Shown in pieces: positions 24,220-47,535 of a stretch of 64,000 bases of DNA. This DNA comes from Candidatus Roizmanbacteria bacterium RIFCSPHIGHO2_12_FULL_37_23. Its GTDB lineage: Bacteria > Patescibacteriota > Microgenomatia > UBA1406 > HO2-37-13b. The position numbers and the translations under genes were made by a program. The stretch's first letter is position 1, and every line of letters starts with the position of its first letter. The notes beneath the pieces were generated by a model. The model did not search any database. It was not told the DNA's origin and was given only the letters and a program-made list of their open reading frames with translations. The DNA lies in assembly GCA_001788095.1 (NCBI GenBank), contig MFZX01000009.1:185-64184 (forward strand), written 5' to 3'.

Positions 24220-24257
24220 ATTTTAATTGTGATATTATAGTGTATTATAATATTTTC

Positions 24258-25094
24258 ATGAGAAAACTTATTGTCATTGGTGATTATTGTAGAGATACAG
24301 TGGTTTGTCAAGAAATCCGATCAAGCGTGGATGGATTTCTTAAAAATCAGAAAGAAAGTAAAATATCATTTATCAGTGTAACTCCTTCGACGATTCATAC
24401 AAGCTATGTATTACAGCAAATTGTATTAACAGAAGAAAGATATGGTATTCCCGAGGAAACAGTTTTTTTTGTAAATACTGATCCTCGGATTGAAAGAGAT
24501 AGTTATGCTCCTGAAGCAGAAGGATCTAAAGGAGTCATCATAAAGCTTGTGAGCGGAATATATGTAACTGGGCCGAATTCCGGATTTTGCTTTTCAATGA
24601 TTAAAGAAAGAATTCAAGCAGTATTTACATATGAGCCACTCAGTAAAGGAAGTCAATTTAGATCTCGTGATAATTATCCGCGCATCATAGCACATCTTAT
24701 GGATTATATGGAGGACGAATTAGAGACAGATTCATCAAGCAAAGATATAATTAAAGAGTTAAAAGGTTTTTATGTAGGACACATAGACAATTATGGAAAC
24801 ATTAAAACTACTATAACGCACGAAGATCTTAAAGGGAAATTATCTATTGGAGACGTATCTGTAATTGAGATCAACAATACGAAACAAGAAGCAAAATATG
24901 TAGACAACTTATTTGGAGGACGTGTAGGACAGTTAGTGATTTATCCTGGATCGTCAGGAAGGCCCGATAACCCATACATGGAAATATCTTGTTGGAGCCA
25001 TTTTGGTGATACGAAGCAAGGTGAAGCTGCTAAAACAGGAAAAGATTTTTTTGAAGGTATATCTCCCGGTTCTTCAATTACTATAGATCTTTAA
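24258..25094 (+). CDS. SAM hydroxide adenosyltransferase family protein (DUF62; SAM-dependent chlorinase/fluorinase-like)
   Basis: The N-terminal domain (LIVIGDY...VFFVNTDPR) and the C-terminal GHIDNYGNIKTTI resemble the DUF62 pattern xDxFGNxxTN. I prefer the ATG at 24258 (TATAAT plus 6 nt upstream) over the track GTG at 24240. Confidence 0.55.
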   Translation: MRKLIVIGDYCRDTVVCQEIRSSVDGFLKNQKESKISFISVTPSTIHTSYVLQQIVLTEERYGIPEETVFFVNTDPRIERDSYAPEAEGSKGVIIKLVSGIYVTGPNSGFCFSMIKERIQAVFTYEPLSKGSQFRSRDNYPRIIAHLMDYMEDELETDSSSKDIIKELKGFYVGHIDNYGNIKTTITHEDLKGKLSIGDVSVIEINNTKQEAKYVDNLFGGRVGQLVIYPGSSGRPDNPYMEISCWSHFGDTKQGEAAKTGKDFFEGISPGSSITIDL

Positions 25095-31440: not shown

Positions 31441-31478
31441 ATAACCTATTATATAATAGACAACACTAGTAACGATGT

Positions 31479-33707: not shown

Positions 33708-35595
33708 TACATTTATCGTATAACTTATACATATATCCGTAATATGTCGATGGATCATAACGTACAGTTTTTTTCGCTACTCTTTCTCCTTTTTCTATTT
33801 GTTTTCTTGCTTTTTCACATCGGCCGAGTTTAATATAAGAATCCGCAATCTGGAAATACGTATCCGAGTATTCAGTATCAAGACGAAGAGCTTCTTGATA
33901 GTGTCTTAGCGCATTTTCAGGATCATCTGCTCTTAAATACATGTTCCCTATACGTATTCGTCCATTACGATAAAAATCTAAAACATTAGCTAACATGAGG
34001 TTTCTATAAGAACTTAAACTCCCCTTTAAGGGATCTTGATATGTTTGCCAAACGCGCTCTGAACGTTTTAGCAGCTCGTCTTCGTCTGGTATATCTTTTT
34101 CTTTATAAAATTTATAAATCAGACCTTGCGGTATCCAATACGACTTTTCAATGTATGTAGGAAAATTATCGGTAGAATAAATAGGAACTGCACCATAATT
34201 ACGCTCTATAAAATCACTTATGACAATAGAAGGATCCGTCCTCTGTGGTGTTTTAACCTTGGGATAGTATTTCTCAATAATCTTGTTGAATTCACCATTG
34301 TAGAGTTTGATAACATGCACCGGTACTCTATCTTTATATGTATCATATGTAAAATAAACATATTGTGTATTAAATATAAGCGTGTCTGCTTGTAGAAGAA
34401 TTATTGAATTGGGTTCAGTTGTTTTCAATACATCCTCTCCTATTCGTTCAGCAGTTCGATCGAATTTTAAAATAGACAATTTTGGATAATTGATATAAAA
34501 AAGTGAAAGAGGTATAACAAAGAAGAATATAATAATAAGCTGCGCAGTTTTTAGGTATCTTTGAGCAAAATGTAATACTGAATGTATTCCATATCCAATC
34601 CAAAGAGTAATAAATATGTATGACGGAAGCAGAAAACGCTCCATGGTAGCAAGAGTGAAATCAGAAGTTATGATATATGATGCGTAAAAAAAGAATAATG
34701 GCCCTACAGAGAGGAATCCTATTAGAAAGTACCAAAAAATAGCTTTCTTATCGCGATAAAGACCAATATTACCGATAAGGCTAAGAGCCAGACCGATGTA
34801 AGTAAAATCAGTAATATAGAATTCGAGAATTATAGGAAACTGGAGGAGTCGCGATTGCAAAGTCTGGGCATAATGTATGGCTGCCTGAAATGTTCCGTAT
34901 TGAGCTCGTGTTACGAGTTGTATGAAGCCAGTTAAAGTTGTTGGGTCATTCCAAACGATATAAGGTACTGACAGTGCTGATATATAAGCCCAAATATAGG
35001 GTATAAGGCCGAGAATGAAGAAACCCATAAGACGAATCGACATGGTTTTCTGTACTGGAAGATGTTTTTTATGGTGCCATAGTAGAGAAATGATTGCTGG
35101 TGCAAGAAAAATAATGATATGATGATGAGCGAGTCCAAGTCCAAATAGTAATGCGCCAGTATATAGATACCTTACTTGATAGTTAATGCTCCAAATATAT
35201 AGCGCATACAATAAAGAAATAGATATCGCCAAGTGTAGAGCGAATACTTCGGGCACTATACTATATAACCAGAATATATATGTACAAGCTAGAATCGCTG
35301 TTGTGATAAGAGAGATACTTATAGATTTCGTTAATTTTTTAATAAAAAGGAACAAAATAGAAAGCGCTAATGCTGAAGGAATTGACGAGAGCAATCCTAT
35401 TCGCCATGCTACAGTACTTATAGGAATTTTTGATATAAGAAATCCAAGAAAAGAGTATAGAGGATAGCCTGGAGGATGAGCAATTCCACCTACAAATGCT
35501 GCTGAAACAAGATCACCCGCATCACCTCCGTATATGCTTGTACTTTGAAAATATCCGAAGAAGATTGAATAAAGGATGAAAACGAAAAAACCCAT
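33622..35595 (-). CDS. DUF2723 (TMEM260-like) membrane glycosyltransferase-like protein with C-terminal TPR repeats
   Basis: GGDAGDLVSAAFVGGIAHPPGYPLY signature near the N-terminus, more than 10 TM segments, and a TPR-like C-terminus. Start moved to ATG 35595, because the track start at 35625 lies inside the pilin terminator hairpin. Confidence 0.7.
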   Translation of the reverse strand: MGFFVFILYSIFFGYFQSTSIYGGDAGDLVSAAFVGGIAHPPGYPLYSFLGFLISKIPISTVAWRIGLLSSIPSALALSILFLFIKKLTKSISISLITTAILACTYIFWLYSIVPEVFALHLAISISLLYALYIWSINYQVRYLYTGALLFGLGLAHHHIIIFLAPAIISLLWHHKKHLPVQKTMSIRLMGFFILGLIPYIWAYISALSVPYIVWNDPTTLTGFIQLVTRAQYGTFQAAIHYAQTLQSRLLQFPIILEFYITDFTYIGLALSLIGNIGLYRDKKAIFWYFLIGFLSVGPLFFFYASYIITSDFTLATMERFLLPSYIFITLWIGYGIHSVLHFAQRYLKTAQLIIIFFFVIPLSLFYINYPKLSILKFDRTAERIGEDVLKTTEPNSIILLQADTLIFNTQYVYFTYDTYKDRVPVHVIKLYNGEFNKIIEKYYPKVKTPQRTDPSIVISDFIERNYGAVPIYSTDNFPTYIEKSYWIPQGLIYKFYKEKDIPDEDELLKRSERVWQTYQDPLKGSLSSYRNLMLANVLDFYRNGRIRIGNMYLRADDPENALRHYQEALRLDTEYSDTYFQIADSYIKLGRCEKARKQIEKGERVAKKTVRYDPSTYYGYMYKLYDKCIKDEQEAEKWKKRYEKKIKEEETLLKEL

Positions 35596-35609
35596 TGGAC
35601 GATTATAAC

Positions 35610-35637
35610 AAAAAACCCGCTGCAAAGCGGGTTTTTT
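35610..35637 (-). terminator. intrinsic terminator downstream of the major pilin gene (symmetric A6-CCCGC...GCGGG-T6 hairpin)
   Basis: Plus strand aaaaaacccgctgcaaagcgggtttttt. On the minus strand this reads AAAAAACCCGC-TTTGCA-GCGGGTTTTTT, 24 nt after the pilin stop. Confidence 0.8.
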
Positions 35638-35661
35638 GTATTTAATAGCTAAGTGACTACA

Positions 35662-36189
35662 TCAGAATCCGCATGTCGGTCCACCTGTGCTCGAGTAAAC
35701 CTCAAAGTAATTGTTTATCACACCATCTGATGTGAGCTTTCCAGCATTTGCTGAGGACTCCATTCTTGCACATACGTTGTATCTAAGATTGTTATCCATT
35801 TGAATCTGGTATCCTAAAGCTCCGGTTTGGATTGTACCATCACTTAGAGTATATTCCCCATCTCTATTTACAGGGTCAATTGATACAGTGTTGGCATATT
35901 TACATAAATCTAGCCCATGCCATCCTCCGGTACCACATTGGTTATTTCCGCCAGTACTAAAGGCGCTCATAGCTGTGAGAGAGCTTATATTATCTCCAAT
36001 GTACTGTTCTACAATACCTTGTAAGGTACCTAGTTCCTTAAGCCTTTGAGCGTCTCGTGATCTTTTTTGGGCCTCGGCTGGGTTTATGGTAATAAGCGCT
36101 ATCACAGCGAGAATTGCAATAAGCGCAACAACTATCAAAATTTCTACAAGAGTAAAACCTTTTTGAACCTTCATAAGTTTTTTCAACAT
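35662..36189 (-). CDS. type IV major pilin (prepilin-type N-terminal cleavage/methylation domain)
   Basis: MLKKLMKVQKG|FTLVEILIVVALIAILAVIAL class III signal peptide with Glu5. Four Cys in the C-terminal globular part. Has its own promoter and terminator. Confidence 0.9.
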   Translation of the reverse strand: MLKKLMKVQKGFTLVEILIVVALIAILAVIALITINPAEAQKRSRDAQRLKELGTLQGIVEQYIGDNISSLTAMSAFSTGGNNQCGTGGWHGLDLCKYANTVSIDPVNRDGEYTLSDGTIQTGALGYQIQMDNNLRYNVCARMESSANAGKLTSDGVINNYFEVYSSTGGPTCGF

Positions 36190-36226
36190 AATGATATATT
36201 AAATATAATTTTTAACCCTTTGTATC

Positions 36227-36256
36227 ATAATAGTCTATTTTTTAAACATTTGTCAA
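36227..36256 (-). promoter_or_regulatory. sigma70-like promoter for the major pilin (TTGACA-N18-TATTAT)
   Basis: Minus strand: TTGACA at 36256..36251, 18-nt spacer, TATTAT at 36232..36227. Confidence 0.5.
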
Positions 36257-36285
36257 GTACTATTTAACAGCAGGAATGAGTAGTT

Positions 36286-37485
36286 TTAAAACGATGAAGA
36301 AAGGCTAAATATAGGAGTAATAACGGCTATAACGACAAATCCTACACCAATTCCAAGTACAATGAGTATCGCAGGCTCTATGAGCGTTGTGAGTGCTTTA
36401 ATCGCAATTTCAGACTCACTCTCGAAGTAATTTGCTAAATGTCCTAGTGTCTCGTCAAGATGTCCCGTTTGTTCTCCAACAGAAGTCATCTGGACGAGAA
36501 TTGGAGGAAATATACCAGTTTCGTCAAGCGATCTACCTAATGTTTCTCCCTTTTCTATATTAAGACGTATATTCCTGAGTGCTTCCTGATAGATAACATT
36601 ACTTGTTGTTTCTGTAATAATATCAAGAGCTTCTAATATTGAAACACCGGCTCCTATAAGAATGGAGAGGGTACGTGTAGTATCAACAAGTGCCGAAATT
36701 TTTATAACCTTATTGATGAGTGGAACTCTTAACATGATTTGATCGATGAATTTACGTCCAATCCTTGACCGATAATAGCGAAAAAACAAGGAAATTGAAG
36801 CAAAAAAACCTATAATTACCAAAAGCCAGAATTTTTGAAAGAAATCTGAAACTGCTATGAGAAAAATAGTTGGTGGAGGAAGTTCTACATCGAAATCCTT
36901 ATATATTTCCAGTAGCTTTGGAATTACAAAAGTTATCATGATAAACATAACGACCAACATCGCAAGAATAACTACAGCAGGATAAACCATTGCGCTTTTA
37001 ATTTTGCTCCTAAATGTTCGTTGTTGTTCGAGGTTACTAGAAAGTTTATTCAATATTTCATCAAGTTTTCCTGATGCCTCACCTGCTTTTACAAGCGAAA
37101 TATAGAGATTATTGAAAAGTTGTGGATGTCTTTTAAGTGCGTTGGAAAAGCTCATACCAGCTCTTACATCATCATCGATTTCATAAATGAGCTTAGCATA
37201 TGCAGTTTTTTTCGTCTGTTTTTTTAAAATATCAAGAGAGTCAATAATCGTTAATCCAGAATTCAACATGATAGAAAGCTGACGTGTAAAATCAACGATA
37301 TCTGTAAAACTTACTTTACTAAAAATAGATCGAAAGGAATCGAAGATAGGCTTAGATTTCGAGCCGATGCTCAATATAACAACGTTACTGGATCGAAGAT
37401 ATGCTATCGCTTTTTCCTCGCTTTCAGCTTCAATTATCCCACTGACTGTTTTACCTTCTTTTATTGCCTTATATTTGTAATTCAC
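36286..37485 (-). CDS. pilC: type IV pilus platform protein PilC (GspF family)
   Basis: 399 aa with a duplicated T2SSF domain architecture and 3 TM segments. Confidence 0.9.
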   Translation of the reverse strand: MNYKYKAIKEGKTVSGIIEAESEEKAIAYLRSSNVVILSIGSKSKPIFDSFRSIFSKVSFTDIVDFTRQLSIMLNSGLTIIDSLDILKKQTKKTAYAKLIYEIDDDVRAGMSFSNALKRHPQLFNNLYISLVKAGEASGKLDEILNKLSSNLEQQRTFRSKIKSAMVYPAVVILAMLVVMFIMITFVIPKLLEIYKDFDVELPPPTIFLIAVSDFFQKFWLLVIIGFFASISLFFRYYRSRIGRKFIDQIMLRVPLINKVIKISALVDTTRTLSILIGAGVSILEALDIITETTSNVIYQEALRNIRLNIEKGETLGRSLDETGIFPPILVQMTSVGEQTGHLDETLGHLANYFESESEIAIKALTTLIEPAILIVLGIGVGFVVIAVITPIFSLSSSF

Positions 37486-37497
37486 AGATAAAAGGAA

Positions 37498-38589
37498 CTA
37501 GCGAATTAATTTTTGAACCTGCTGTGGCCGGATCGCATTGTAGATTGCAGTTTCTCGGGAAATTTTTCCTTCCAGATATAAGCTTGCTAAATATTGTTCC
37601 ATTAACATCATACCTTGATCTGATGAGGTTTCAAGAACGTTGTCTATAAGGTGTGTTTTGTTTTCACGAATAATGGATGAAATAGCTGGATTACTCATAA
37701 GGAGCTCACATGCTGGTATACGCGATTTTTGGTCTATAGTTGGTACTAAGCGCTGAGATATAACTGCTTTTAATGTAGAAGCCAACTGCATGCGGACTTG
37801 GTTCTGCTGGCGTGAAGGAAAAACATCAACAATACGATCAATAGTTTGGGGAACTGAATTAGTGTGCAGCGTAGAAAAAACAAGGTGCCCGGTTTCAGCG
37901 ATAGTAAGAGCTGCTTGAATAGTCTCATAATCTCTCATCTCACCTATAAGTACGACATCAGGGTCTTCTCGAAGGGCTGATTTTAAAGCAATGGACCATG
38001 AATGGGTATCTTGCCCGATCTCTCTTTGTGAAATAATTGATTTTGAAGCTGGATAAAGATATTCGATCGGATCCTCAATAGTAAGAATATGTCGAGCATG
38101 TTTTAAATTAATTTCGTTAATTATCGCTGCTATAGTAGTCGTTTTTCCTTCTCCAGTAGGGCCTGTAACAAGGATAAAACCCTGCTTTAAATCAGTAAAA
38201 TTATGAAGAATAGGAGGTAGGTTTAATGTTTCTAAAGGACTGATTTTTGTTGTAATAAGTCGAAAAGCTCCGGCAAGAGCTCCCCGAATATAGTACATAT
38301 TTATACGAAATCTATATTCATCATAGTTATATCCGAGGTCAAGTTCTTTATTCGTAATTAAATACTCCTTTTTTTCATCGGTTAAGATTGGTAAAAGCAT
38401 TTCTTTAGTAGATTCAGGCGTAAGGACAGGATAAGTTTTTAATGCAAATAACTGTCCATTAACACGTATTGAAGGGTGATAACCAGGAATAATGTGTAAA
38501 TCAGATGCCTTTTTTTCTATTGTAATGTTTAGTAGTTCGGCAATATCCATAGTTTTAGTATACAGTATATCAATTCTCTCAGGCCTCAC
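37498..38589 (-). CDS. pilT: type IV pilus retraction ATPase PilT
   Basis: 363 aa with ASDLHI, Walker A GPTGEGKTT, Asp/His boxes, and the AHLVFSTLHTN-type motif (GHLVFSTLHTNS). Confidence 0.85.
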   Translation of the reverse strand: MRPERIDILYTKTMDIAELLNITIEKKASDLHIIPGYHPSIRVNGQLFALKTYPVLTPESTKEMLLPILTDEKKEYLITNKELDLGYNYDEYRFRINMYYIRGALAGAFRLITTKISPLETLNLPPILHNFTDLKQGFILVTGPTGEGKTTTIAAIINEINLKHARHILTIEDPIEYLYPASKSIISQREIGQDTHSWSIALKSALREDPDVVLIGEMRDYETIQAALTIAETGHLVFSTLHTNSVPQTIDRIVDVFPSRQQNQVRMQLASTLKAVISQRLVPTIDQKSRIPACELLMSNPAISSIIRENKTHLIDNVLETSSDQGMMLMEQYLASLYLEGKISRETAIYNAIRPQQVQKLIR

Positions 38590-40294
38590 AAACTCTAAGT
38601 ACTTCTTCTAATGTTGTTATTCCCTCGAGAGCCTTTAGATAACCATCTTGCTTCATAGTCATTAAACCATCTGCAACAGCTTGATCGAAAATTTCATTGG
38701 CGGTTGAATTTTTTACAATCAACTTGTCAATTGCACGATTCACTTTTACCATTTCAAATATTCCAACTCTTCCATAATATCCTGCATTTGGCCCCAACAC
38801 GCTATCAGGTTTTTTATAGAGTTTAATCTCCTGAGGATTTTTTACATATTGATCAGGCAGGAAATCACCAAGTACTTCCTGAATATTTTGAATGACTTCA
38901 GGTGAAGGGACGTAAGGAATCTTAGCTTCATCAGATACTCTCCTTACGATTCTTTGAGCAACGACAGCATTTAGTACTGATGAGATGAGGAATGGTTCAC
39001 CTCCGAGATCAATTAGACGAGGGATCGCTGTTGCAGCATCATTCGTATGTAGTGTAGAAAAAACAAGATGGCCAGTTAAGGCTGCTTGTAATGCAAGTTG
39101 CGTTGTTTCAGTATCACGAATCTCTCCAACAAGAATAATATTCGGATCTTGTCTTAAAAATGATCTGAGACCCGTGGCAAAAGTGAGTCCTGCCTGCGGA
39201 TTAATTTGAACTTGATTAACTCCTTTGAGTTGATATTCTACAGGATCTTCAATAGTAACAATATTTACAGCAGGATTATTGAGTCGACTCAGAATGGAGT
39301 ACAAAGTAGTAGATTTACCTGATCCTGTTGGGCCTGTAACTAAAACAATTCCGTATGGTTTTTGAATGGCTTCTTCAAGTATTTTAAGCTGGGGTCCTCT
39401 AAGGCCGAGTTCGCCAAGCGTTGGAATTCCCCCTGTTTTTTTAAGTAATCGCAATACAACTTTTTCGCCATTTACTGTTGGAAGAGTAGATACACGCAAA
39501 TCGACCTCTTCCTCACCCATCTTGAAATTAAATCTACCATCCTGAGGTGCTCTTTTTTCATCTATTTTTAATCCTGATAGTATTTTGATACGGGAAACTA
39601 AAGACTCGTGTATCGATCGAGGAAGAGCTAGCTTTTCCTGGAGAATACCATCTATACGGTATCTTATACGAGTACGAGATTCCTGAGGTTCAAGATGGAT
39701 GTCAGAAGCCCTTCCCTTAATTGCATATTCTAGAAGTGTTTTGACAATTTTAGCTATAGGTGCCTCTTTAATGATTTGACCAATTTGTTCTGCATGAATC
39801 GTTTTTACCTGAGGCTCGAATTCCTTAAGAGCCTCAGTTATGTTTGGAGAAAGATTTTGTGTATAAACAACATCGATTGTCTTTTCAAGATCCTCTTTTA
39901 AGCTTAGAACCGGAACAATTCTTTTCCCTGTTTTTTTTTGCAAAAAACCAATCGTTTGTACATCAAAAGGGTCAATCATCGCAATTCTGAGAATATTTTC
40001 TTTATCATTCAGCTCGAAAGGAACCAGGTGATATTTTCGAGCTATTGATTCTGGAACAAGAGCTAATGCCTGAGGAGCAATGGGCATTGTTGCTCCAGTT
40101 ATCCATCCAAGGTTGAAAACGCGTGCTTTAGCCTTGAGAATTTCTTCTCCATCTATATCAGAGTTTTCAATAAGGTATTCATCAATAGGCATTTCTTTTT
40201 GAAGTGAATCAACTTCATATTTTTCAGCTTGTTCCTGTGTGATAATCTTGCTCTCAATCAGTGATTCTAGGAACTGTTTTGTGGGTAATGTCAT
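38579..40294 (-). CDS. pilB: type IV pilus assembly ATPase PilB (GspE family)
   Basis: 571 aa with an N-terminal GSPII-type domain, Walker A GPTGSGKST, and GHLVFSTLHTND. Confidence 0.9.
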   Translation of the reverse strand: MTLPTKQFLESLIESKIITQEQAEKYEVDSLQKEMPIDEYLIENSDIDGEEILKAKARVFNLGWITGATMPIAPQALALVPESIARKYHLVPFELNDKENILRIAMIDPFDVQTIGFLQKKTGKRIVPVLSLKEDLEKTIDVVYTQNLSPNITEALKEFEPQVKTIHAEQIGQIIKEAPIAKIVKTLLEYAIKGRASDIHLEPQESRTRIRYRIDGILQEKLALPRSIHESLVSRIKILSGLKIDEKRAPQDGRFNFKMGEEEVDLRVSTLPTVNGEKVVLRLLKKTGGIPTLGELGLRGPQLKILEEAIQKPYGIVLVTGPTGSGKSTTLYSILSRLNNPAVNIVTIEDPVEYQLKGVNQVQINPQAGLTFATGLRSFLRQDPNIILVGEIRDTETTQLALQAALTGHLVFSTLHTNDAATAIPRLIDLGGEPFLISSVLNAVVAQRIVRRVSDEAKIPYVPSPEVIQNIQEVLGDFLPDQYVKNPQEIKLYKKPDSVLGPNAGYYGRVGIFEMVKVNRAIDKLIVKNSTANEIFDQAVADGLMTMKQDGYLKALEGITTLEEVLRVCEA

Positions 40295-40330
40295 ACATTT
40301 TCACTATAAAGAATTGTATGTTAAAATGCA

Positions 40331-41029
40331 ATGATTCCAACTATGCTCCCTATTTTATTAATATCACGAACCAACAAAGCTCATGAAAAGTTCATTGATG
40401 CATTTATTAAAAAACATGCTATTCATCCATCCGGCATCGTAACAATAGAAAAAGAAAAACAATCTGTATCAATAGAGCAAATCCGAGATATTCAAAAAAT
40501 GCTTAGTAGAAATACTGGCCAGATACAGCTTGTTGTAATACATGACTTTGATACAGCTCGTGAGGAAGCCCAAAACGCATTTCTTAAAACGCTGGAAGAA
40601 AAAAATGATCACACTTTTTTTATCCTTGTCGTTTTTTCAGATACAAAAATATTACCTACGATCTTGTCTAGAGCGCATATCGTGCGAACAGAAAGTGAAG
40701 ATCAAGGCGTTACTATGATACAGAAGCTCGGTCTTCTTAAAAAGACGCTTTCTCTAGAGGAATCTCTTGGGTTGACAGTTCACATAACGAAAGAAAATGC
40801 GCTAGCAACTGTAGATGAATTAATGGTTTATCTTAACAGAGCGCTATTAGCAACACAAGATCGAAAAGGATTTTCCAAGGGCTTCGCTCAAGCGATAGAG
40901 ACAAAGAAATTGATTCTAGAAAACAATACAAATCATGAATATTCACTCGACCAACTTCTCATTACTCTTTTCCATCTCGGTATTTTGCCCACGACTATTG
41001 ACTTACCTGAGGAGAAAGTGATATCCTAA
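40331..41029 (+). CDS. DNA polymerase III delta'-like clamp-loader subunit (no P-loop)
   Basis: 232 aa with AQNAFLKTLEE and LPTILSRAHIV (SRC-type) motifs. Walker A is absent. Confidence 0.55.
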   Translation: MIPTMLPILLISRTNKAHEKFIDAFIKKHAIHPSGIVTIEKEKQSVSIEQIRDIQKMLSRNTGQIQLVVIHDFDTAREEAQNAFLKTLEEKNDHTFFILVVFSDTKILPTILSRAHIVRTESEDQGVTMIQKLGLLKKTLSLEESLGLTVHITKENALATVDELMVYLNRALLATQDRKGFSKGFAQAIETKKLILENNTNHEYSLDQLLITLFHLGILPTTIDLPEEKVIS

Positions 41030-41035
41030 AATATA

Positions 41036-41494
41036 ATGAGGAAATACGCTTCAGAAGGATTCACCTTATTTGAAATGCTTATTGTATTACTTATTCTGAG
41101 TACAATTCTTTCTATCGCAACAGTATCTTTTTTTTCGGTTAGAAGAGACTCTCGCGATAGTCGTAGAAAGACAGATCTTGAAGAAGTAAGATCAGCTTTA
41201 GAGCAGTATAGAAGCAATAATAATATATACCCAACTCCTACAGGTACATTTGGATTACCGTTTGGACAGTCTGGATTAACTGATGACGATGCAAATACTT
41301 ATGTACAATTATTGCCCCAGGACCCGCTTTTTTCTAAAAGGAATTATTATTATCAAACATCTGGTGGCGACTATACACTTTCTACGGAATTGGAAACAGC
41401 TGAACCAACTCCATGCGCTACCCCACCAGGTGGAGATAGTTGTGGATCAGGTCTCGGTTGTAACTACTGCTTAGGATCTTATGGTAAGAAGTAA
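41036..41494 (+). CDS. pilin-like protein (GspG/PulG-like, prepilin-type N-terminus)
   Basis: MRKYASEG|FTLFEMLIVLLIL and the RRKTDLEEVRSALEQY helix. Cys-rich C-terminus. Confidence 0.85.
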   Translation: MRKYASEGFTLFEMLIVLLILSTILSIATVSFFSVRRDSRDSRRKTDLEEVRSALEQYRSNNNIYPTPTGTFGLPFGQSGLTDDDANTYVQLLPQDPLFSKRNYYYQTSGGDYTLSTELETAEPTPCATPPGGDSCGSGLGCNYCLGSYGKK

Positions 41495-41954
41495 GACTTA
41501 TCCCCATTATCAAAAGGGAGTAACATTTATAGAACTCATTATTGTTCTTTCTGTCATTGTGATTTTATCTACGCTTTCACTTTCATCGTACAGGAATTTT
41601 AATGAGGATAGAAAACTTGAACTTGAAGCCCAAAAATTAATAGAAACATTTGAACTTGCCAAGAAAAAAACAATATCAGGAGATAAACCATGTGGTTCCT
41701 TCCAAGGAACATATACAGTAAGCTGGACAATATCGTCCTATACTTTAACACCTGATGGATGTTCTAATCTTATGACCTACCGATTTCCAGGATCAATAGT
41801 ATTAACGACAAATAGTTCTGTTACATTCCAGCCATTTGGAAGAGGTTCAGATGAAGCATCAATTATTATTAAACACGTTAAAAAGAGTGTATGCCGCAAT
41901 GTGACACTAAATGGAGCAGGTACGGCAGATCAGGACATCATAACATGTCCTTGA
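41481..41954 (+). CDS. minor pilin (GspH/FimT-like, prepilin-type N-terminus)
   Basis: ...YQKG|VTFIELIIVLSVIVIL class III signal. 157 aa. Confidence 0.75.
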   Translation: MVRSKTYPHYQKGVTFIELIIVLSVIVILSTLSLSSYRNFNEDRKLELEAQKLIETFELAKKKTISGDKPCGSFQGTYTVSWTISSYTLTPDGCSNLMTYRFPGSIVLTTNSSVTFQPFGRGSDEASIIIKHVKKSVCRNVTLNGAGTADQDIITCP

Positions 41955-41960
41955 TTACGA

Positions 41961-42419
41961 ATGAGTTCTCCTATGAAAAGTAATATATTACAGCGAGGTG
42001 TTACACTTCTTGAAGTTCTCATATTTATAACTATTCTTTCCTTTGTTTTTATAGGAGTTGCAATTACTACAACATCGTCATTACAAAGAACTCAATACAA
42101 CCAACATAAAATTCTTGCTACGCACTATGCAGAAGAACTTGAAGAATGGATGAGAGGAGAAAAAGAGGCTGATTGGACAAGTTTTGTGAATAAATCAGCA
42201 GCACTGCCAGGAAGGATCTATTGTTTTAATAGTACGACCATTGCTTGGCCATCTGTGGGGAATTGTTCTGGTGTGTATGGGTTAGTAAATACATTCAAAA
42301 GAGAAGCCACACTTTCTGGAACTGGTTCTCAGATTACTGTTAATATAAACATAGAATGGCAAGAGGCAAGCAACCTATTTTCTATCCCAATTGATACAGT
42401 TTTTTCTCAATGGGACTAA
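41961..42419 (+). CDS. minor pilin (prepilin-type N-terminus)
   Basis: ...LQRG|VTLLEVLIFITILSFVF class III signal. 152 aa. Confidence 0.75.
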   Translation: MSSPMKSNILQRGVTLLEVLIFITILSFVFIGVAITTTSSLQRTQYNQHKILATHYAEELEEWMRGEKEADWTSFVNKSAALPGRIYCFNSTTIAWPSVGNCSGVYGLVNTFKREATLSGTGSQITVNINIEWQEASNLFSIPIDTVFSQWD

Positions 42420-42426
42420 GCGCAAT

Positions 42427-42975
42427 ATGAAAAGCAAATTACGTGGTTTCACCCTTATTGAGACAATGATAGTACTAAGCATTATCGGGTTAATTATTCC
42501 AGTAATGTTTAGTCTTTTTTTTATAAATCTGCGGTCCCAAACTAAAGTATTAATTTTGCAGGAAGTAAAAAGAAACGGAGATAACTCACTCAATACAATT
42601 GAATCTTTATCAAAACAGTTTGGCGTAAGCTTTCACCAAGCTTCCCCGCCGCTTCGCACCAACGAAGTTTGTGTTACTACGGGTTCGAATTATTCAGCAG
42701 GTAATATTTACATTCTGGATGAAAGTGGAGATTGGTTTTCATTCTATCTAGATAATGGTCGAATCGCTTCAGAAAGCGGTACAACAGGTGTTACATATCT
42801 TACTAATGATAAAGTTGTTGTTTCAAGTTTTAGCCTGACATGCGATCGTCCTATATCAGTATCACCTCCGATAATGTCTATTTCCTTTACGGTAAGCCAA
42901 GTTGGTACTCCAGGGAGACAGGAGGAAGAAGCATCTCTTAATTATCAAACAAAAATAAAACTGAGGTCATATTAG
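42427..42975 (+). CDS. minor pilin (PilW-like, prepilin-type N-terminus)
   Basis: MKSKLRG|FTLIETMIVLSIIGLI. Start set at the internal ATG 42427, just after the previous stop at 42419. Confidence 0.75.
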   Translation: MKSKLRGFTLIETMIVLSIIGLIIPVMFSLFFINLRSQTKVLILQEVKRNGDNSLNTIESLSKQFGVSFHQASPPLRTNEVCVTTGSNYSAGNIYILDESGDWFSFYLDNGRIASESGTTGVTYLTNDKVVVSSFSLTCDRPISVSPPIMSISFTVSQVGTPGRQEEEASLNYQTKIKLRSY

Positions 42976-43014
42976 GTATTGAAAACGAGGCATTAGTGCT
43001 ATAATAGTGCTTAT

Positions 43015-44424
43015 ATGCTTCCCTCCAAGTTTTTGCGTGATAGATCTTCTATTTTAAAAAAAGAACTTCAACATGTAGAGTCTACGGTAGACGAGGAAGA
43101 ATACTTTTTGAAAAGAAGCGCACAGACAATTCAGAAAAGAACACAGCAATTACGAGAAACAAAAAATCAAGCGTTTGATACAGTGTCATTATGGGGGCTT
43201 TATGGGCAAGAGGATATGAAGGCTTTCAAATCAATGACTCTCCCTCTTTTTATGTCAACGACAGGTGGTCCATTTGATTGTCTTGTTGATGGTAGTTTAT
43301 TGCTTTCATATAAAACGATCGACGATCCTAACAAAATATACACGCGAATTGATAATCAAAATCCTGATCACTTAGCGATGAAAATTGCAGCGCTAGAAGG
43401 ACTTGGCGTGCCACAATTAACACAAGGTGTTTGTACATCTTCAGGTATGTCAGCAATACTCATGGCAACAATGCCTTTTCTCGAAGCTAATGATAATTTT
43501 GTTTCGTCAAATCGAGTATATGGAGGAACGCAGCAACTATTTGAAATAACGTATCCTAAGTCAGGTTGGCGCGTTCGCTGGGTTGATAAACCGTGGGAAA
43601 TTAAGGAATGGGAAAAGAGAATTGATAAAAAAACTAAGTTTTTATATATTGAATCACCGAGTAATCCTACATTGTACATAGCAGATATTCAGGCTTTATC
43701 TACATTAGCTCATGAACATTCTATACCGTTAATTATTGATTCGACATTAGCGTCTCCTGCCTTAACGAGACCCTTTGAACATGGTGCCGACATTGTTGTT
43801 CACTCAACCTCTAAGATCGCTAATGGTAGTTGTAGAGCAATTGGAGGCGTGGTGATTTCCCTTGATACTATTACTACCAATATAGAATCTATTAAGGACA
43901 ATTTCGCATATATGTTAAAAGGTGGTCATTTCCGTAACATGGGACCATGTCTTTCACCTTTCAACGCACAAATTATTTGGGATGAACTCATCACGCTGCG
44001 CTTAAGAGTTAAACAAGTGTCAGAAAATGCTTTGATCATAGCAAAATATCTTGAAAAACATCCAAAAATAGAAAAAGTAAATTATCCTGGTCTTGCTTCT
44101 CATCCTCAGCATAGAATTGCAAAACAGCTTATGAAGCTTCCTGATGGCCAAAACGCTTATGGTCATCTTATGTCCTTTAATATCAAAGGAGGACTACGTA
44201 AAGCAAAAAAATTTGCTGAAAATTTTGAATTTGGTGTTCAGGTTACTCATTTAGGAGGTAGTTATACTGTTTGGGTACACAACGCAACAACGACACATGG
44301 TCAAATGACAAATGAAGAGAGACGAGCTGCTGGAATTTCTGATAACCTTATTCGATACTCTGTAGGCTTGGAAGGAGTACAAGATGCACTATCTGCACTT
44401 GATAAAACATTACGGAAAATATAA
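43015..44424 (+). CDS. Cys/Met-metabolism PLP-dependent enzyme (O-acetylhomoserine sulfhydrylase / methionine gamma-lyase family) with an N-terminal extension
   Basis: 469 aa. The core starts at FDTVSLWG, the PLP lysine context is VVHSTSKIANGS, and the C-terminal LIRYSVGLE motif is present. Confidence 0.75.
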   Translation: MLPSKFLRDRSSILKKELQHVESTVDEEEYFLKRSAQTIQKRTQQLRETKNQAFDTVSLWGLYGQEDMKAFKSMTLPLFMSTTGGPFDCLVDGSLLLSYKTIDDPNKIYTRIDNQNPDHLAMKIAALEGLGVPQLTQGVCTSSGMSAILMATMPFLEANDNFVSSNRVYGGTQQLFEITYPKSGWRVRWVDKPWEIKEWEKRIDKKTKFLYIESPSNPTLYIADIQALSTLAHEHSIPLIIDSTLASPALTRPFEHGADIVVHSTSKIANGSCRAIGGVVISLDTITTNIESIKDNFAYMLKGGHFRNMGPCLSPFNAQIIWDELITLRLRVKQVSENALIIAKYLEKHPKIEKVNYPGLASHPQHRIAKQLMKLPDGQNAYGHLMSFNIKGGLRKAKKFAENFEFGVQVTHLGGSYTVWVHNATTTHGQMTNEERRAAGISDNLIRYSVGLEGVQDALSALDKTLRKI

Positions 44425-44442
44425 AATTTAAATATTGTACGA

Positions 44443-45150
44443 TTAGTTTAGTACACCCTCTTTTACTAATTCTGACACAACGACAAGTCTCTCTGAGTAG
44501 GATTTTTTGATCGAGTTCCAAACACCATCACATGTTATAAGTCTGAGTGCAGTGCCTTCATAATCACCATATACATATTCAGCAGGAAAAGTATCCAAGG
44601 GATAACTTTGAAGCTCAATGACGTTAAATGTAAGTTTCAACCCGTTTTCAGTTGTTACGATTATTGCGTCTCCTGGCTCCAGAAGCGCAAGGTTATAAAA
44701 TACTGCAGGAGAACCGTCTGTACGATCAAAATGTCCATTCACAATTGCCGCTCCATACTCTCCTGGACGCACACTATGTTCATACCATCCCACCTTCTCG
44801 AAATCCTTAGGGATTTCCATAACATGTTCGGGTGTTATTCCTACATATTGTATAAGGGAGTCAACACCAATTACGGGAATTTCAATTTTTGCTGGTGGTT
44901 CAACCTGAATTGGAGTAGGTATCTCTGTTGGGCTAGGCTGCGGAGATGGAAGAGGTAGATTATGGGTAACGGTTTCTACGTCTTGACGATCTTTGGCAAA
45001 AACTCCAGCAACCTCTCCTTTTTTGTTTCCTAATGGGGTCTTAAGGATAGTGAGCTCTGTTGGGGGAAGAAAAATAGCAATGATCAATACTAAAAAAATT
45101 CCGTAGATGATTTTAGTATTTAATTCAACAATTTTATTTAAAAATTCCAT
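44443..45150 (-). CDS. sortase family transpeptidase (class E/F-like)
   Basis: N-terminal TM anchor, Pro-rich linker, catalytic His context IVNGHFD, and TLxTC-type motif LRLITCDG. Confidence 0.75.
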   Translation of the reverse strand: MEFLNKIVELNTKIIYGIFLVLIIAIFLPPTELTILKTPLGNKKGEVAGVFAKDRQDVETVTHNLPLPSPQPSPTEIPTPIQVEPPAKIEIPVIGVDSLIQYVGITPEHVMEIPKDFEKVGWYEHSVRPGEYGAAIVNGHFDRTDGSPAVFYNLALLEPGDAIIVTTENGLKLTFNVIELQSYPLDTFPAEYVYGDYEGTALRLITCDGVWNSIKKSYSERLVVVSELVKEGVLN

Positions 45151-45208
45151 TACATATTAAGCATATATAATATAGTGTAGAAAAAGCAAGATTTTTGTTC
45201 TAAACGTC

Positions 45209-45237
45209 TTGACTTATCAAACCTACTTCTCCATACT
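45209..45237 (+). promoter_or_regulatory. sigma70-like promoter for pilMNO (TTGACT-N17-CATACT), 6 nt from the ATG
   Basis: TTGACT at 45209..45214, 17-nt spacer, CATACT at 45232..45237, then taaagt and the ATG at 45244. Confidence 0.4.
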
Positions 45238-45243
45238 TAAAGT

Positions 45244-46287
45244 ATGTCTGATTCTATTTTCTGTGTAGATTTTGGGGAATATTATCTTAAAGTTGCCCAA
45301 GTTGATCATAAAAAGAAAATCTTGGAAATCAAAGCCGCCGCATTCAATGAAATACCATTTAATCCGTATGCATCTTCTGCAGAAGAAGTTTTCAAGAAAT
45401 CTGAGGAGCTTTTAGTTAAGCTTATTGCAGATGCTAGTATTAAACATCAAGATGTAAATATAATTATTCCAGATAGTCAAAGCTACACGCGGATTTTTGA
45501 AATGCCTTTGCTTACAGACAAAGAGCTTTTATCTGCCATAAAATATCAAGCTGATCAATTTATCCCAATCCCTATAGATAAAGTTAGCCTTGACGTTCAC
45601 ATACTTCACAAAGATAAACAAAACAATAAAGTTGATATTTTGCTTGTTGCAGCAGCGAATACTGTGATTGAGAATATTGTTCAGATCGTTGAATCTGCAT
45701 CACTTATGCCTGTATCCATTGAAAATGAGGCAAGTGCAACAGTCAGACTTATAACCACGATACTAAAAATGGAGAAACAGAAAAACAGGAGCACTGATGA
45801 ATGTGAAGTATTTATAAACTTCGGAAATTCTTCAACATCTCTTTATTTGTTTAGTGTAACTGAGCAACGACCATTACAGGTGCATAATTTTACTCTTGGC
45901 AGAAGTATATTTTATCGAGATATTCTATCTAATTACTCTCTTAATGATCAGCAAATAAAGGATCTTATAGAAAATATAGGATTTTCCGAGGATGATTCGA
46001 CATATGATCTACATCAACTTTTAGCTGCACCGCTTAACGAGTTTGTCTCTGAGGTCAAAAGATTTTTAATGTCTACCAAGGAAGGTGCTTCTGGTAAAGT
46101 AAGGAATATTTATTTACTCGGCGAAGGTTCCAAATTTGCTTTTCTTGATAAAAAATTATCATCGCTTCTAGGCCAGTCTATTACTCCTCTTAACCTTTCT
46201 GAATACGTTTCTAAAAATTCAGTTTCAGACTACTTCAAACAAGACTGGCCATTGCTTGCTCCTGTAATAGGTGGAGCACTCAGATAG
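45244..46287 (+). CDS. pilM: type IV pilus assembly protein PilM (actin-like ATPase fold)
   Basis: 347 aa with an N-terminal FCVDFGEYYLKVAQV phosphate-1-like motif. Followed by PilN- and PilO-like genes. Confidence 0.8.
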   Translation: MSDSIFCVDFGEYYLKVAQVDHKKKILEIKAAAFNEIPFNPYASSAEEVFKKSEELLVKLIADASIKHQDVNIIIPDSQSYTRIFEMPLLTDKELLSAIKYQADQFIPIPIDKVSLDVHILHKDKQNNKVDILLVAAANTVIENIVQIVESASLMPVSIENEASATVRLITTILKMEKQKNRSTDECEVFINFGNSSTSLYLFSVTEQRPLQVHNFTLGRSIFYRDILSNYSLNDQQIKDLIENIGFSEDDSTYDLHQLLAAPLNEFVSEVKRFLMSTKEGASGKVRNIYLLGEGSKFAFLDKKLSSLLGQSITPLNLSEYVSKNSVSDYFKQDWPLLAPVIGGALR

Positions 46288-46289
46288 AT

Positions 46290-46844
46290 ATGGAAATTAC
46301 AATAAATCTTCTTCAGCAAGAAAAAAATTACAAGAGAATAGAAAATTTTTTACATATAGCACGGATGATAGTCATTCTTTTTGGTGCTGCTACATTTATT
46401 GCATTAATAGTTATTTTTTTGCTCAAGCGCAACATTAGCCAATTAGTTGACTCAAAAAGCTCAAGAAAAGAGCAGTTACTCACTGAACTCAATCAAGTTC
46501 AGGATCTTGAAGCTAAAGTTCTTTTACTAAACCAAAAGACACAACTCATGAACCAAATCGTTATACAGGAACCTCATTACTTAGACTATTACAATACTTT
46601 AAAGAGATATCTGCCTTTGGCAACTAATTCAGCCCAACTAGGTACAATTACTCTCGATAGTAAAAAGAGCGCACAGGTACAGATTGAATTTGCAGGAATT
46701 ATTCCTCTGTCTGAATTTCTTGGACGAATTGAAGAGGATGATTTCAAAAACAGTTTTAAATTGGCACAGATCAGTAGGATATCATTCTCTGAGTCTGTAG
46801 ACGAGCAGTTAAAATTAACACTTAACGTTACGTTCAATGAATAG
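46290..46844 (+). CDS. pilN: PilN-like pilus assembly protein
   Basis: 184 aa with an INLLQQE N-terminus, a single TM helix, and a coiled coil. Confidence 0.65.
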   Translation: MEITINLLQQEKNYKRIENFLHIARMIVILFGAATFIALIVIFLLKRNISQLVDSKSSRKEQLLTELNQVQDLEAKVLLLNQKTQLMNQIVIQEPHYLDYYNTLKRYLPLATNSAQLGTITLDSKKSAQVQIEFAGIIPLSEFLGRIEEDDFKNSFKLAQISRISFSESVDEQLKLTLNVTFNE

Positions 46845-47535
46845 AAAGATTATTGGAAATAGATATTTATATCGTCTTATTAAGAGACATGTTATTTATA
46901 TTATTGGGTTTGTATTATTTTCGATTTTGGCAAGTTCTTTTATTCCTCTTCAAATTAACAAATATGGTCAGCTTAGAAAACAATCAGGCTTACTTGACGA
47001 AGAATTAGCTCGACTGGAACAAAGAAGAGCTGTTTTAACACAATATAGAAATATTAACATTGACGAGCTCATCACCCTTGTAAATACTATTTTTCCTAAT
47101 ACCGAAGATAGATTTTCAATATTTGGAGCAATGGATAATTTAGAAGTTATTACTGGAGTTCCAATTACTGATTATTCCTCTCCTTTCACAGGTCATGCAA
47201 TAGATGAAACCGTCATTAGCGCACATGGACGTGCCAATGAGACAGCTTTTATGAATTTTTTAAAGGATTATCCTTATTTATCTGGGAGGCTTATTACTCT
47301 GGATAAAATAAATTTTAATCCTAAGGAAAATTTGATTAATTTTTCAATAGTCTTTCATACTAGAGATATTCCACCTTCAGAAAATCTTATTCCAGAATAT
47401 AATGCTACAGTTGTCTTGCAAATTAATGCTCTGAGGGATGAACTTGAAGCTCGTAATCCTGCATTTGCTCAAAATAGCAGAGAGGAAGAAGTAATACCTA
47501 TAAATTATTCAACAAAGACTAATCCATTTGAATAG
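46837..47535 (+). CDS. PilO-like pilus assembly protein
   Basis: 232 aa with a single TM helix followed by a coiled coil (LDEELARLEQRRAVL). Called mainly from its position after pilM and pilN. Confidence 0.5.
   Translation: MNRKIIGNRYLYRLIKRHVIYIIGFVLFSILASSFIPLQINKYGQLRKQSGLLDEELARLEQRRAVLTQYRNINIDELITLVNTIFPNTEDRFSIFGAMDNLEVITGVPITDYSSPFTGHAIDETVISAHGRANETAFMNFLKDYPYLSGRLITLDKINFNPKENLINFSIVFHTRDIPPSENLIPEYNATVVLQINALRDELEARNPAFAQNSREEEVIPINYSTKTNPFE

Follow-up and report, generated by a model that had tools for sequence, protein, structure and literature searches.

A probable monoderm-type, secretin-less type IV pilus cluster of a Microgenomates bacterium, interleaved with three genes that do not resemble pilus components

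The 64-kb stretch of DNA analysed here as a whole (hereafter the window) comes from a Candidatus Roizmanbacteria bacterium, and the nearest sequences to its PilB in a similarity search all belong to Microgenomates. Type IV pilus genes lie on both of its strands, and every open reading frame reported in a preliminary description of the region was recovered at its position. On the minus strand, the gene of the major pilin PilA (35662..36189) encodes 175 amino acids with the cleavage motif G↓FTLVE and matches PF07963 (N_methyl, E=1.9e-8) and TIGR02532. It is followed on the same strand by an intrinsic terminator (35608..35639), a GC stem between an A-tract and a U-tract, whose hairpin (-22.1 kcal/mol, z=-5.25) was equalled in none of 200 shuffles. 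Upstream of pilA, also on the minus strand, a candidate sigma-70-like promoter (36227..36256, TTGACA-18-TATTAT) agrees with the consensus at 11 of 12 positions; it scores highest in the region and is to be read as a consensus match only, the region's total of promoter-like sites being no higher than in shuffled sequence. Both elements fit the earlier proposal that pilA has a promoter and a terminator of its own. A glycosyltransferase cluster adjoins pilA. The placement of pilC, pilT and pilB on the minus strand is borne out by coordinates and profile matches: the platform protein PilC (36286..37485) contains two T2SSF repeats (PF00482, E=1.9e-66), the retraction ATPase PilT (37498..38589; 350 aa from the start at 38550 chosen by gene callers) reaches 437 bits against TIGR01420 (cutoff 319), and the assembly ATPase PilB (38579..40294) combines a T2SSE domain (PF00437, E=2.6e-123) with an N-terminal MshEN domain (PF05157, E=4e-14), scoring 540 bits against TIGR02538, under the cutoff of 676.

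The plus strand carries four prepilin-type genes (41036-42975), with the very cleavage motifs that had been read from them. Minor pilin 1 (41036..41494, G↓FTLFE) is GspG/PilE-like (PF08334, PF07963) and minor pilin 2 (41481..41954, G↓VTFIE, PF07963) weakly GspH-like (PF12019, E=0.0027); minor pilin 3 (41961..42419, G↓VTLLE) scores exactly at the PF07963 cutoff, and minor pilin 4 (42427..42975, G↓FTLIE; PF07963, E=4e-6) begins at 42427 according to gene callers (182 aa), the longest open reading frame starting at 42391. Orthologues of minor pilins 1 and 3 occur in relatives. Further along the same strand, PilM (45244..46287) matches PF11104 (PilM_2, E=2e-21) over its full length. It is followed by two putative pilus proteins, both bitopic: a PilN-like protein (46290..46844) with an N-terminal INLL motif, encoded directly after pilM in relatives as well, and a PilO-like protein (46837..47535) with a conserved C-terminal NYSTKxNPF motif and conserved orthologues after pilN. 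The profile searches that had been proposed identified families for most products and confirmed pilM; the PilN-like and PilO-like proteins gave no Pfam or PDB sequence match. Their names are suggested by their position after pilM, by the PilN motif, of which I5-N6-L7 are invariant among 6 orthologues, and by the similarity of their profiles to each other (hhalign E=1.7e-5). A single-sequence AlphaFold2 model of the PilO-like protein was unusable (pLDDT 51).

Secretin-less sets of PilB, PilC, PilM, PilN and PilO with a PilT retraction ATPase are characteristic of the type IVa pili of monoderm bacteria (Streptococcus sanguinis, Clostridium) and of ComG competence pili, and monoderm type IV pili, like the host locus, possess some four minor pilins whose signals read G↓(F/V)TxxE; such pili were reportedly treated by Melville and Craig in 2013. 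The present locus differs from them in its strongly diverged sequences, with PilN and PilO falling under the Pfam detection limit, and in showing neither a large tip adhesin gene nor a PilY1-like one. It also resembles the clusters of CPR/Patescibacteria (Méheust et al., 2019, PMC6744442; Microgenomates Ch65, PMC7143001; Saccharibacteria, PMC11623550), in which PilB/T/C/M/N/O and several pilins are co-localised, PilQ secretin and PilP are missing, and a sortase is found in the same genomes. A monoderm-style, secretin-less pilus, as had been proposed for the region, is supported and was already published for CPR generally (PMC6744442, PMC7143001); for Microgenomates, both the co-localised secretin-less clusters and near-universal sortases were known (Méheust et al., 2019, PMC6744442). 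Unlike those clusters, the locus lacks PilD in the host's sub-lineage, its minor pilins and pilMNO come after a clamp-loader delta' gene and not after pilA and pilD, and one sortase gene and one pyridoxal phosphate (PLP) enzyme gene are embedded in it.

The reported lack of a secretin, PilP and prepilin peptidase extends to the whole window. Four PilD sequences from relatives gave no tblastn match across its 64 kb, and neither Secretin nor Peptidase_A24 domains occur in the open reading frames that were scanned or carry precomputed Pfam annotation; the remaining ones, read by eye only, resemble housekeeping genes. It had also been considered that PilQ and PilD might lie just outside: the adjoining 10 kb on the left side contain housekeeping genes only. 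Since PilD is encoded inside the pilus locus of 17 relatives, we read its absence here as a split locus in the sub-lineage and not as a peptidase-free system; the prepilin peptidase would then be encoded elsewhere in the genome. That contrast with the 17 relatives could also mean that the locus is degenerate and its pilus genes non-functional relics, which we consider most improbable: all pilus reading frames are intact with conserved motifs, the intact gene order recurs in many samples, PilD is reported to be widespread in CPR (PMC6744442), and the four closest GTDB relatives have intact clusters and likewise no PilD within 10 kb of pilB.

Between pilB and minor pilin 1 lies, on the plus strand, a gene for a short DNA polymerase III delta' (HolB)-type clamp-loader subunit (40331..41029; PF13177, E=1.3e-19), whose best NCBIfam matches are all holB. 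PF13177 aligns only over positions 70-157 of 161, and the protein thus lacks the P-loop part; this, together with the 6 nt that separate the gene from minor pilin 1, agrees with what had been noted before. The family consensus opens with MxPILL, which suggests a start at 40343. Across 40 homologues the QNAxLKxLEE helix and the arginine finger T..SR are invariant, and F84 and T87 nearly so. The AlphaFold2 model (pLDDT 89.8) has the AAA+ clamp-loader fold, its top three Foldseek matches being TM0771 of T. maritima, B. subtilis HolB and E. coli delta'. The protein has 228-232 aa, compared with about 330 in typical delta' such as that of E. coli (1A5T/1JR3 chain E); its N-terminus is reduced and its C-terminal collar short. 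Being some 100 aa shorter, it stays below the holB cutoffs (76 bits against 180.6).

Synteny was compared in about 34 related pilus loci, with delta'-pilB counts out of 33. The delta' gene stands back-to-back with pilB, at no more than about 300 bp, in 26 of these 33; in the closest relatives only 2-36 nt separate the two genes. Together with the missing P-loop, the reduced length, the sub-cutoff scores and the database naming, which is mostly just 'hypothetical protein', this could indicate that a degenerate AAA+ paralogue was co-opted by the pilus system, where it might for example regulate PilB, serve as its adaptor or link DNA uptake to replication; such a role would explain the adjacency to pilB across Microgenomatia. 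We regard it as very unlikely. Loss of the P-loop combined with retention of an SRC-type arginine finger is precisely what marks a delta' protein, and delta'/HolB chains rank first among the structural matches. Short delta' proteins also exist elsewhere, since PRK08485, an NCBIfam delta' model of 206 positions, aligns with most of the protein. On its far side the partner of delta' on the same strand is mostly gyrB (21 loci, directly downstream in several) and not a pilus gene; one locus (L072) reads delta'-gyrB-...-gyrA, and in a Saccharibacteria locus (L071) delta' is away from pilB. Moreover, dnaX is the only other clamp-loader gene seen within the window. The gene is a housekeeping clamp-loader delta' subunit (HolB) placed by class-wide synteny, not a pilus component; its linkage to pilB is real, but the gene heads a replication cluster with gyrB, which speaks against the earlier suggestion of a pilus accessory. 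It would be the sole delta' of the genome, the cell's own minimised HolB. We would like to point out that the delta'-pilB adjacency was kept across the whole class despite rearrangement of other pilus genes, and chance retention alone does not fully explain it.

The second interleaved gene (43015..44424, plus strand) encodes a Cys/Met-family PLP enzyme with a full-length PF01053 match (E=2e-96) and the catalytic lysine in HS(T/I)SK. It falls in the family of O-acetylhomoserine sulfhydrylase (MetY) and methionine gamma-lyase, with 8SF5, 7KB0 and 2RFV as its best-scoring solved relatives, and would be a stand-alone metabolic enzyme resembling one or the other. It differs from both in belonging to a separate subfamily, whose members are about 470 aa long and carry a helical N-terminal extension and an insertion (about 10 aa) within the chain; no NCBIfam equivalog cutoff is reached. 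The extension, put at 50-55 aa in the preliminary description, measures about 48 aa, solved O-acetylhomoserine sulfhydrylases aligning from residue 49; it is conserved, together with K267, in CPR, DPANN and Asgard homologues. The subfamily spans domains: named members, mainly DPANN/Asgard archaea with scattered CPR bacteria, include Nanoarchaeota, Woesearchaeota, Asgard archaea and Magasanikbacteria at 55-76% identity, in unrelated neighbourhoods. None of the 34 related pilus loci contains the gene. DNA homology to the sister-species locus L053 ends exactly at 42975, the stop codon of minor pilin 4, and resumes inside the sortase gene, L053 having different open reading frames in this slot. 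Given the variable slot and the archaeal subfamily members in unrelated contexts, we take the gene to be a recent, species-specific insertion. Its GC content (0.374) is taken as equal to that of the host (0.363), and there is thus no compositional signal of recent transfer.

The third gene, on the minus strand and divergent from pilM, encodes the expected membrane-anchored sortase (44443..45150; PF04203, E=2.8e-20). It is nearest to class F, which scores best among the sortase classes (NF033748: 139 bits, E=7e-41, under the cutoff of 166), and shares with that class an N-terminal membrane anchor, a Pro/Thr-rich linker and the catalytic His (GH), Cys (LITCDG) and Arg; the GH and LITCDG motifs are invariant among its relatives, and the Arg is present in 5 of 6. 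It differs by its sub-cutoff score and by the lack of a sequence match to solved sortases at E<=0.01. The search for a substrate detected no LPXTG-like sorting signal in the window, as had been noted, nor in L053 or beside any related sortase. A sortase occupies the same site in L053-55 and L059-60; the position next to pilM is common only to the window and the sister species L053 (PilB 86% identical, sortase 52%). No sortase was found there in the next-closest relatives L001 (PilB 78%), L015 (73%), L002 and L003, in which pilM comes immediately after minor pilin 4, and 33 of the 34 related pilus loci lack the gene. Five further relatives of the sortase (L056, L064, L066, L067, L069) have no pilus neighbours.

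The preliminary description proposed that the interleaved genes may be co-regulated accessories, the sortase for instance anchoring a pilus-associated or cell-wall protein. In such a scheme the sortase, with or without the PLP enzyme and the delta'-like protein, would serve the pilus, for example through covalent anchoring of a protein that the pilus needs. CPR bacteria are enriched in sortases as well as in type IV pili (PMC6744442), and the divergent arrangement of sortase and pilM occurs in two species despite a sortase identity of only 52%. From the delta' gene through the minor pilins to the PLP gene, the gaps measure no more than 39 nt and contain no convincing terminator; these six genes are therefore probably co-transcribed and may be co-regulated in this trivial sense, since tight spacing would lead to read-through without a common function. 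We nevertheless judge a joint pilus function unlikely. Conserved linkage across relatives fails for the PLP enzyme and, beyond one sister species, for the sortase; other members of both groups sit away from pilus genes, and the window, L053 and the surroundings of related sortases yielded no sorting-signal protein. Common descent suffices for the shared sortase arrangement, because the two species are close relatives. The sortase-pilM adjacency did survive while the neighbouring slot was remodelled in the two species, which is weakly compatible with selection.

None of the delta'-like gene, the sortase and the PLP enzyme resembles a pilus component. The region is in all likelihood a standard secretin-less, monoderm-type, type IVa-like pilus cluster of a Microgenomates/CPR bacterium, laid out as pilB-pilT-pilC-pilA on one strand and four minor pilins with pilM-pilN-pilO on the other, in which the three interleaved genes stand for unrelated historical reasons. 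From the observed gene identities, synteny counts, insertion boundaries and delta' fold, a possible order of rearrangements can be proposed. In Microgenomatia, delta' stands beside pilB and opens a delta'-gyrB replication cluster; in the host's sub-lineage the minor-pilin and pilMNO block would have replaced gyrB downstream of it. A sortase of a family near-ubiquitous in Microgenomates would have moved beside pilM in the common ancestor of the host and one sister species, and the PLP gene, presumably of horizontal origin, would have been inserted into the variable slot that separates minor pilin 4 from the sortase, its subfamily having been exchanged, we infer, between CPR bacteria and DPANN/Asgard archaea.

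Four genes of the pilus locus lie on the minus strand: pilA (35662-36189), pilC (36286-37485), pilT (37498-38589, with its start codon probably at 38550 according to gene callers) and pilB (38579-40294). PilC is a polytopic platform protein with two T2SSF repeats (PF00482, E=1.9e-66), PilT is a retraction ATPase that scores 437 bits against TIGR01420 (cutoff 319), and PilB is an assembly ATPase with a full-length T2SSE match (PF00437, E=2.6e-123) and an MshEN domain, whose match to TIGR02538 (E=8e-162, 540 bits) stays below the equivalog cutoff of 676. The plus strand carries four prepilins with class III cleavage motifs (minor pilins 1 to 4, 41036-42975, the fourth probably starting at 42427 according to the same gene callers), pilM (45244-46287; PF11104, E=2e-21) and two genes for bitopic proteins, one PilN-like (46290-46844) and one PilO-like (46837-47535). 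The motif G↓F/V-T-x-x-E is found within the first 25 residues of five ORFs and of no others in the window, and PF07963 matches these as well. The ORF map and the Pfam and NCBIfam scans reproduced the gene list of the preliminary description at its coordinates, and the four cleavage motifs came out exactly as quoted there. Its private promoter and terminator for pilA also held: the best promoter match of the region (11/12 positions) lies upstream of pilA, and a strong hairpin with a U-tract terminator is found 3' of the stop codon (-22.1 kcal/mol, z=-5.25). Note also that the GspG-like minor pilin 1, present once in the window, occurs in 2-4 tandem copies in four of the related loci fetched for comparison (L002, L003, L025 and L044), its copy number differing among lineages. 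Spans of ~2.5 kb, shown by many tblastn matches and considered as possible inteins in PilB, were identified by ORF mapping as PilB plus the adjoining homologous PilT, and not as insertions.

The PilN-like protein has an invariant N-terminal I-N-L-L, and PilN binds PilM through an INLLP motif; the assignment of the PilN-like protein also rests on position and topology. The PilN-like and PilO-like profiles match each other (E=1.7e-5), and both genes come after pilM in relatives. PDB profile searches and permissive Pfam scans with six orthologues of each protein gave no match, and an AlphaFold2 model built from the PilO-like sequence alone reached a pLDDT of 51, too low for use. Sequence comparison supports the two genes as candidate pilN and pilO. 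The PilO-like protein ends in a motif N-Y-S-T-K-x-N-P-F (47503-47529); its residues Y224, K227, N229, P230 and F231 do not vary among six species, although identity over the rest of the protein is only 24-50%. This motif is not a sorting signal, since no hydrophobic segment follows it.

CPR genomes are reported to co-localise PilB, PilT, PilC, PilM, PilN and PilO and to be without PilQ (Méheust et al., 2019, PMC6744442), and a paper on a closed Microgenomates genome agrees with a secretin-less CPR pilus (PMC7143001). The absence of a secretin in the window agrees with this literature, and the secretin-less, monoderm-style reading made in the preliminary description is correct and already known, because both studies report the same. 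That the locus has no PilQ, PilP or prepilin peptidase was likewise borne out: no Secretin or A24 peptidase domain occurs in the ORFs scanned or with precomputed Pfam annotation, four PilD sequences of related bacteria gave no tblastn match in the 64-kb window, and pilO is directly followed by a convergent KH-domain gene, with no PilQ or PilP in the scanned ORFs. Read by eye, the remaining ORFs of the window resemble housekeeping genes. Housekeeping genes, and no A24 peptidase domain, are likewise found in the 10 kb left of the window; to the right there are only contigs of ~2 kb or less. The nearest PilB sequences all belong to Microgenomates (Woese-, Gottesman-, Roizman- and Daviesbacteria), the gene order of the window recurs in many metagenome assemblies, and Candidatus Roizmanbacteria RIFCSPLOWO2_02_FULL_37 has proteins identical to the sortase and to the delta'-like protein. 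We class the locus with the secretin-less type IV pilus clusters already known from CPR, of which it is an ordinary example.

The preliminary description had regarded three interleaved genes, encoding a delta'-like protein, a PLP enzyme and a sortase, as possible co-regulated accessories of the pilus, and this part of its interpretation was not supported by synteny. We retrieved 44 loci centred on PilB, each with flanks of 10 kb, and located in them the homologues of all genes of the window, a PilB query having no bias toward loci with the interleaved genes; loci reached through sortase and delta' homologues were added, and 34 CPR loci were tabulated. Linkage to pilus genes stood for delta', a homologue of which is encoded no more than ~300 bp from pilB, on the other strand, in 26 of the 33 loci with enough flank, but not for the sortase, found in the pilus locus in 1 of the 34, nor for the PLP enzyme, found in none. 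The far side of delta' is occupied by gyrB in 21 of the 34 loci. In the commonest Microgenomates layout, delta' is followed by gyrB on one strand and pilB, pilT and pilC run in the opposite direction, followed by pilA, pilD and the minor pilins (L004-L029, e.g., L009 7236-9970 and L017 7314-9924; also L072 6001-12642). In the window and in loci L001, L002, L003, L015 and L053, the place after delta' is taken by the minor pilins and pilMNO. PilD is found inside the pilus locus in 17 of the 34, between pilA and the minor pilins in genomes with the gyrB-delta'-pilB order, and no PilD lies within 10 kb in the sub-lineage formed by the window and these five loci: its pilus locus is probably split from its PilD. 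A by-product of this comparison is a map of the Microgenomates pilus locus, in which an ancestral-looking order of gyrB, delta', pilB, pilT, pilC, pilA, pilD and minor pilins can be set against the rearranged layout of the window.

For the delta'-like gene (40331-41029, plus strand), the family consensus, with MxPILL at its N-terminus, makes 40343 the probable start. Its PF13177 match begins at profile position 70, the P-loop half being absent. The segment QNAxLKxLEE (Q81, N82, A83, L85, K86, L88, E89 and E90) does not vary in 40 homologues, where F84 and T87 are nearly constant. T110, S113 and R114 of an SRC-type arginine finger, which reads TILSRA in the window, are invariant in these 40 homologues too. 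Together, these features form the sequence signature of delta'. An AlphaFold2 model built from the alignment of these 40 homologues (pLDDT 89.8) has the three-domain clamp-loader AAA+ fold, and its top Foldseek matches, all with a probability of 1.00, are 2gno (TM0771), 9a80_B (HolB), 3glh_E, 1jr3_E and 1a5t (E. coli delta'), at TM-scores of 0.42-0.56 that are modest because the delta'-like protein is shorter. Matches in the PDB are led by the delta'/HolB chains of T. maritima, B. subtilis and E. coli, with gamma and RFC subunits after them. The best NCBIfam matches are all holB models, of which PRK08485 (206 positions) covers most of the protein; the match to TIGR00678 (76 bits, below the cutoff of 180.6) is partial because the protein is truncated relative to that model. 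We conclude that the gene is predicted, from sequence and modelled fold, to encode the cell's own minimised delta' (HolB). Its synteny with gyrB in 21 loci, and with gyrA in L072, lends indirect support to a role as the genome's one delta', which would assemble with DnaX and delta. As a by-product, a minimised delta' of ~220 aa, which many databases still name "hypothetical", is recognised. The window also holds dnaX (4849-5895), encoding a DnaX of 348 aa that matches just the N-terminal gamma-like part of dnaX models and has no tau C-terminal domains; with this DnaX and a delta' of ~230 aa, the clamp loader looks minimised.

The start of gyrB lies within ~100 bp of the delta' stop codon in several loci, the order in L072 is delta'-gyrB-...-gyrA, and in a Saccharibacteria genome the delta' gene is found away from pilB. 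We conclude that the linkage of delta' to pilB is conserved gene order; in the sub-lineage of the window, the block of minor pilins and pilMNO would have taken the place of gyrB downstream of delta'. In the window, 36 nt separate the start codon of pilB from that of delta', and in L002 and L003 the distance, measured between longest ORFs, is 2-22 nt; the intergenic stretch at 40295-40342 has overlapping promoter-like hexamers on both strands. At such spacing, the predicted divergent promoters of pilB and delta' must either overlap or be placed within the adjoining gene, and the delta' transcript leader would be very short or absent. There is a slight chance that this divergent arrangement, found class-wide with almost no spacer, is a shared control region that would couple expression of a pilus for DNA uptake and attachment to the replication machinery in Microgenomates. 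The strength of the adjacency between delta' and pilB is an unexplained residual novelty, of a low order.

The membrane-anchored sortase (44443-45150, minus strand; PF04203, E=2.8e-20) is closest to class F, scoring 139.4 bits with NF033748, where the cutoff of 166 is not reached, and 33 bits with the next, class E; searches by sequence against solved structures gave no match. Its catalytic H140 (in GH) and C207 (in LITCDG) are invariant, and the Arg is present in 5/6 relatives. In one sister species (L053-55 and L059-60; PilB 86% identical), a 52%-identical orthologue occupies the same site and is likewise divergent from pilM. In L001 (PilB 78% identical), L015 (73%), L002 and L003, minor pilin 4 adjoins pilM with no sortase, and other relatives of this sortase (in L056, L064, L066, L067 and L069) have no pilus neighbours. 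A metagenome scan with the sortase alignment yielded no more than 12 loci, for the most part short contigs and further copies of the sister species. The statement in the preliminary description that no LPXTG-type substrate is visible in the window was upheld: a relaxed LPXTG/LAXTG-type regular expression and a generic detector of a C-terminal hydrophobic segment with a basic tail, applied to the window, L053 and the loci of related sortases, gave spurious or polytopic-membrane matches only, and no ORF adjoining a sortase has a sorting signal. A sortase near delta' in Saccharibacteria (L071) was considered as a recurring link and dismissed as coincidence, as those sortases differ by eye, and the ORF between the two is neither a pilin nor a substrate. 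Common descent of two close species suffices to account for the adjacency of sortase and pilM; there is only a slight chance that, in the Roizmanbacteria sub-lineage, this pilM-adjacent sortase has become a pilus accessory, e.g., anchoring a pilus-associated protein to the wall.

The Cys/Met-family PLP enzyme (43015-44424, plus strand; PF01053, 323 bits) falls below all NCBIfam equivalog cutoffs (MetY, MetZ, MGL, CGS and CBL; the best is TIGR01326, 325 vs 495 bits), and its nearest characterised relatives are sulfhydrylases and gamma-lyases. The N-terminal extension noted in the preliminary description is real, amounting to ~48 aa relative to solved O-acetylhomoserine sulfhydrylases. Within it is an EE-YF-KRS-T-R motif region, and both the extension and the PLP-binding K267 (invariant in 10 members) are conserved throughout a distinct ~470-aa subfamily that also has a small internal insertion. 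Named members are found in Nanoarchaeota and Woesearchaeota (70-71% identity), in Asgard archaea (55-63%) and in scattered CPR bacteria, e.g., Magasanikbacteria, with 55-76% identity overall; our literature search found no description of this subfamily in DPANN, Asgard archaea or CPR. DNA homology between the window and the sister species stops exactly at the stop codon of minor pilin 4 (42975) and resumes inside the sortase gene at ~44651, delimiting a variable slot (42976-44650 in the window, 7924-9538 in L053) that holds the PLP gene in the window and, in L053, a 91-aa ORF, ribbon-helix-helix-like by eye, and two unknown ORFs. Three homologues on long contigs are set among unrelated genes, which in one case include many of mobile-element and toxin-antitoxin type. 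The base composition of the PLP gene does not deviate and adds no sign of horizontal transfer. We read the gene as a species-specific insertion of what appears to be a horizontally mobile, stand-alone enzyme. There is a possibility that the enzyme represents an uncharacterised, N-terminally extended Cys/Met subfamily moved between CPR and DPANN/Asgard archaea; a distinct PLP-enzyme subfamily common to both domains is a further by-product of this work.

Directly beyond pilA, four large polytopic membrane proteins are encoded at 27944-35625. The first (27944-30142) is Wzy_C/O-antigen-ligase-like and has TPR repeats at its C-terminus, the second (30139-31440) is an unknown membrane protein of 433 aa, the third (31479-33707) is a YfhO protein, and the fourth (33622-35625) is a TMEM260-like GT-C/PMT_2 protein that also has TPR repeats. 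In L001, L004-L007, L012 and L015, pilA or pilC is followed by the pair of TMEM260-like and YfhO genes. PglL and TfpO, which are pilin O-oligosaccharyltransferases, belong to the Wzy_C proteins; TfpW belongs to the GT-C enzymes, and its gene comes after pilA. Because of these parallels, the Wzy_C, YfhO and TMEM260-like genes may form a candidate pilin-glycosylation cluster beside pilA. Further along, a complete 16S rRNA gene stands alone at 25171-26687, with no 23S or 5S gene in the 64-kb window, and a gene with a SAM_HAT_C domain (24240-25094) separates it from a tRNA-Ala; the rRNA genes are, on this arrangement, unlinked. An ORF at 26291-26683, inside the 16S rRNA gene, is spurious.

Each of the three interleaved genes has a mundane explanation of its own, independent of the other two. 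Little residual novelty is left, comprising the adjacency of delta' and pilB, the glycosyltransferase cluster beside pilA and the cross-domain PLP subfamily, and beyond good annotation there is little here. The apparent "embedded accessory genes" amount to replication-gene synteny, a genus-level neighbour and a species-specific insertion, a result that cautions against reading too much into gene adjacency where genomes are very compact.
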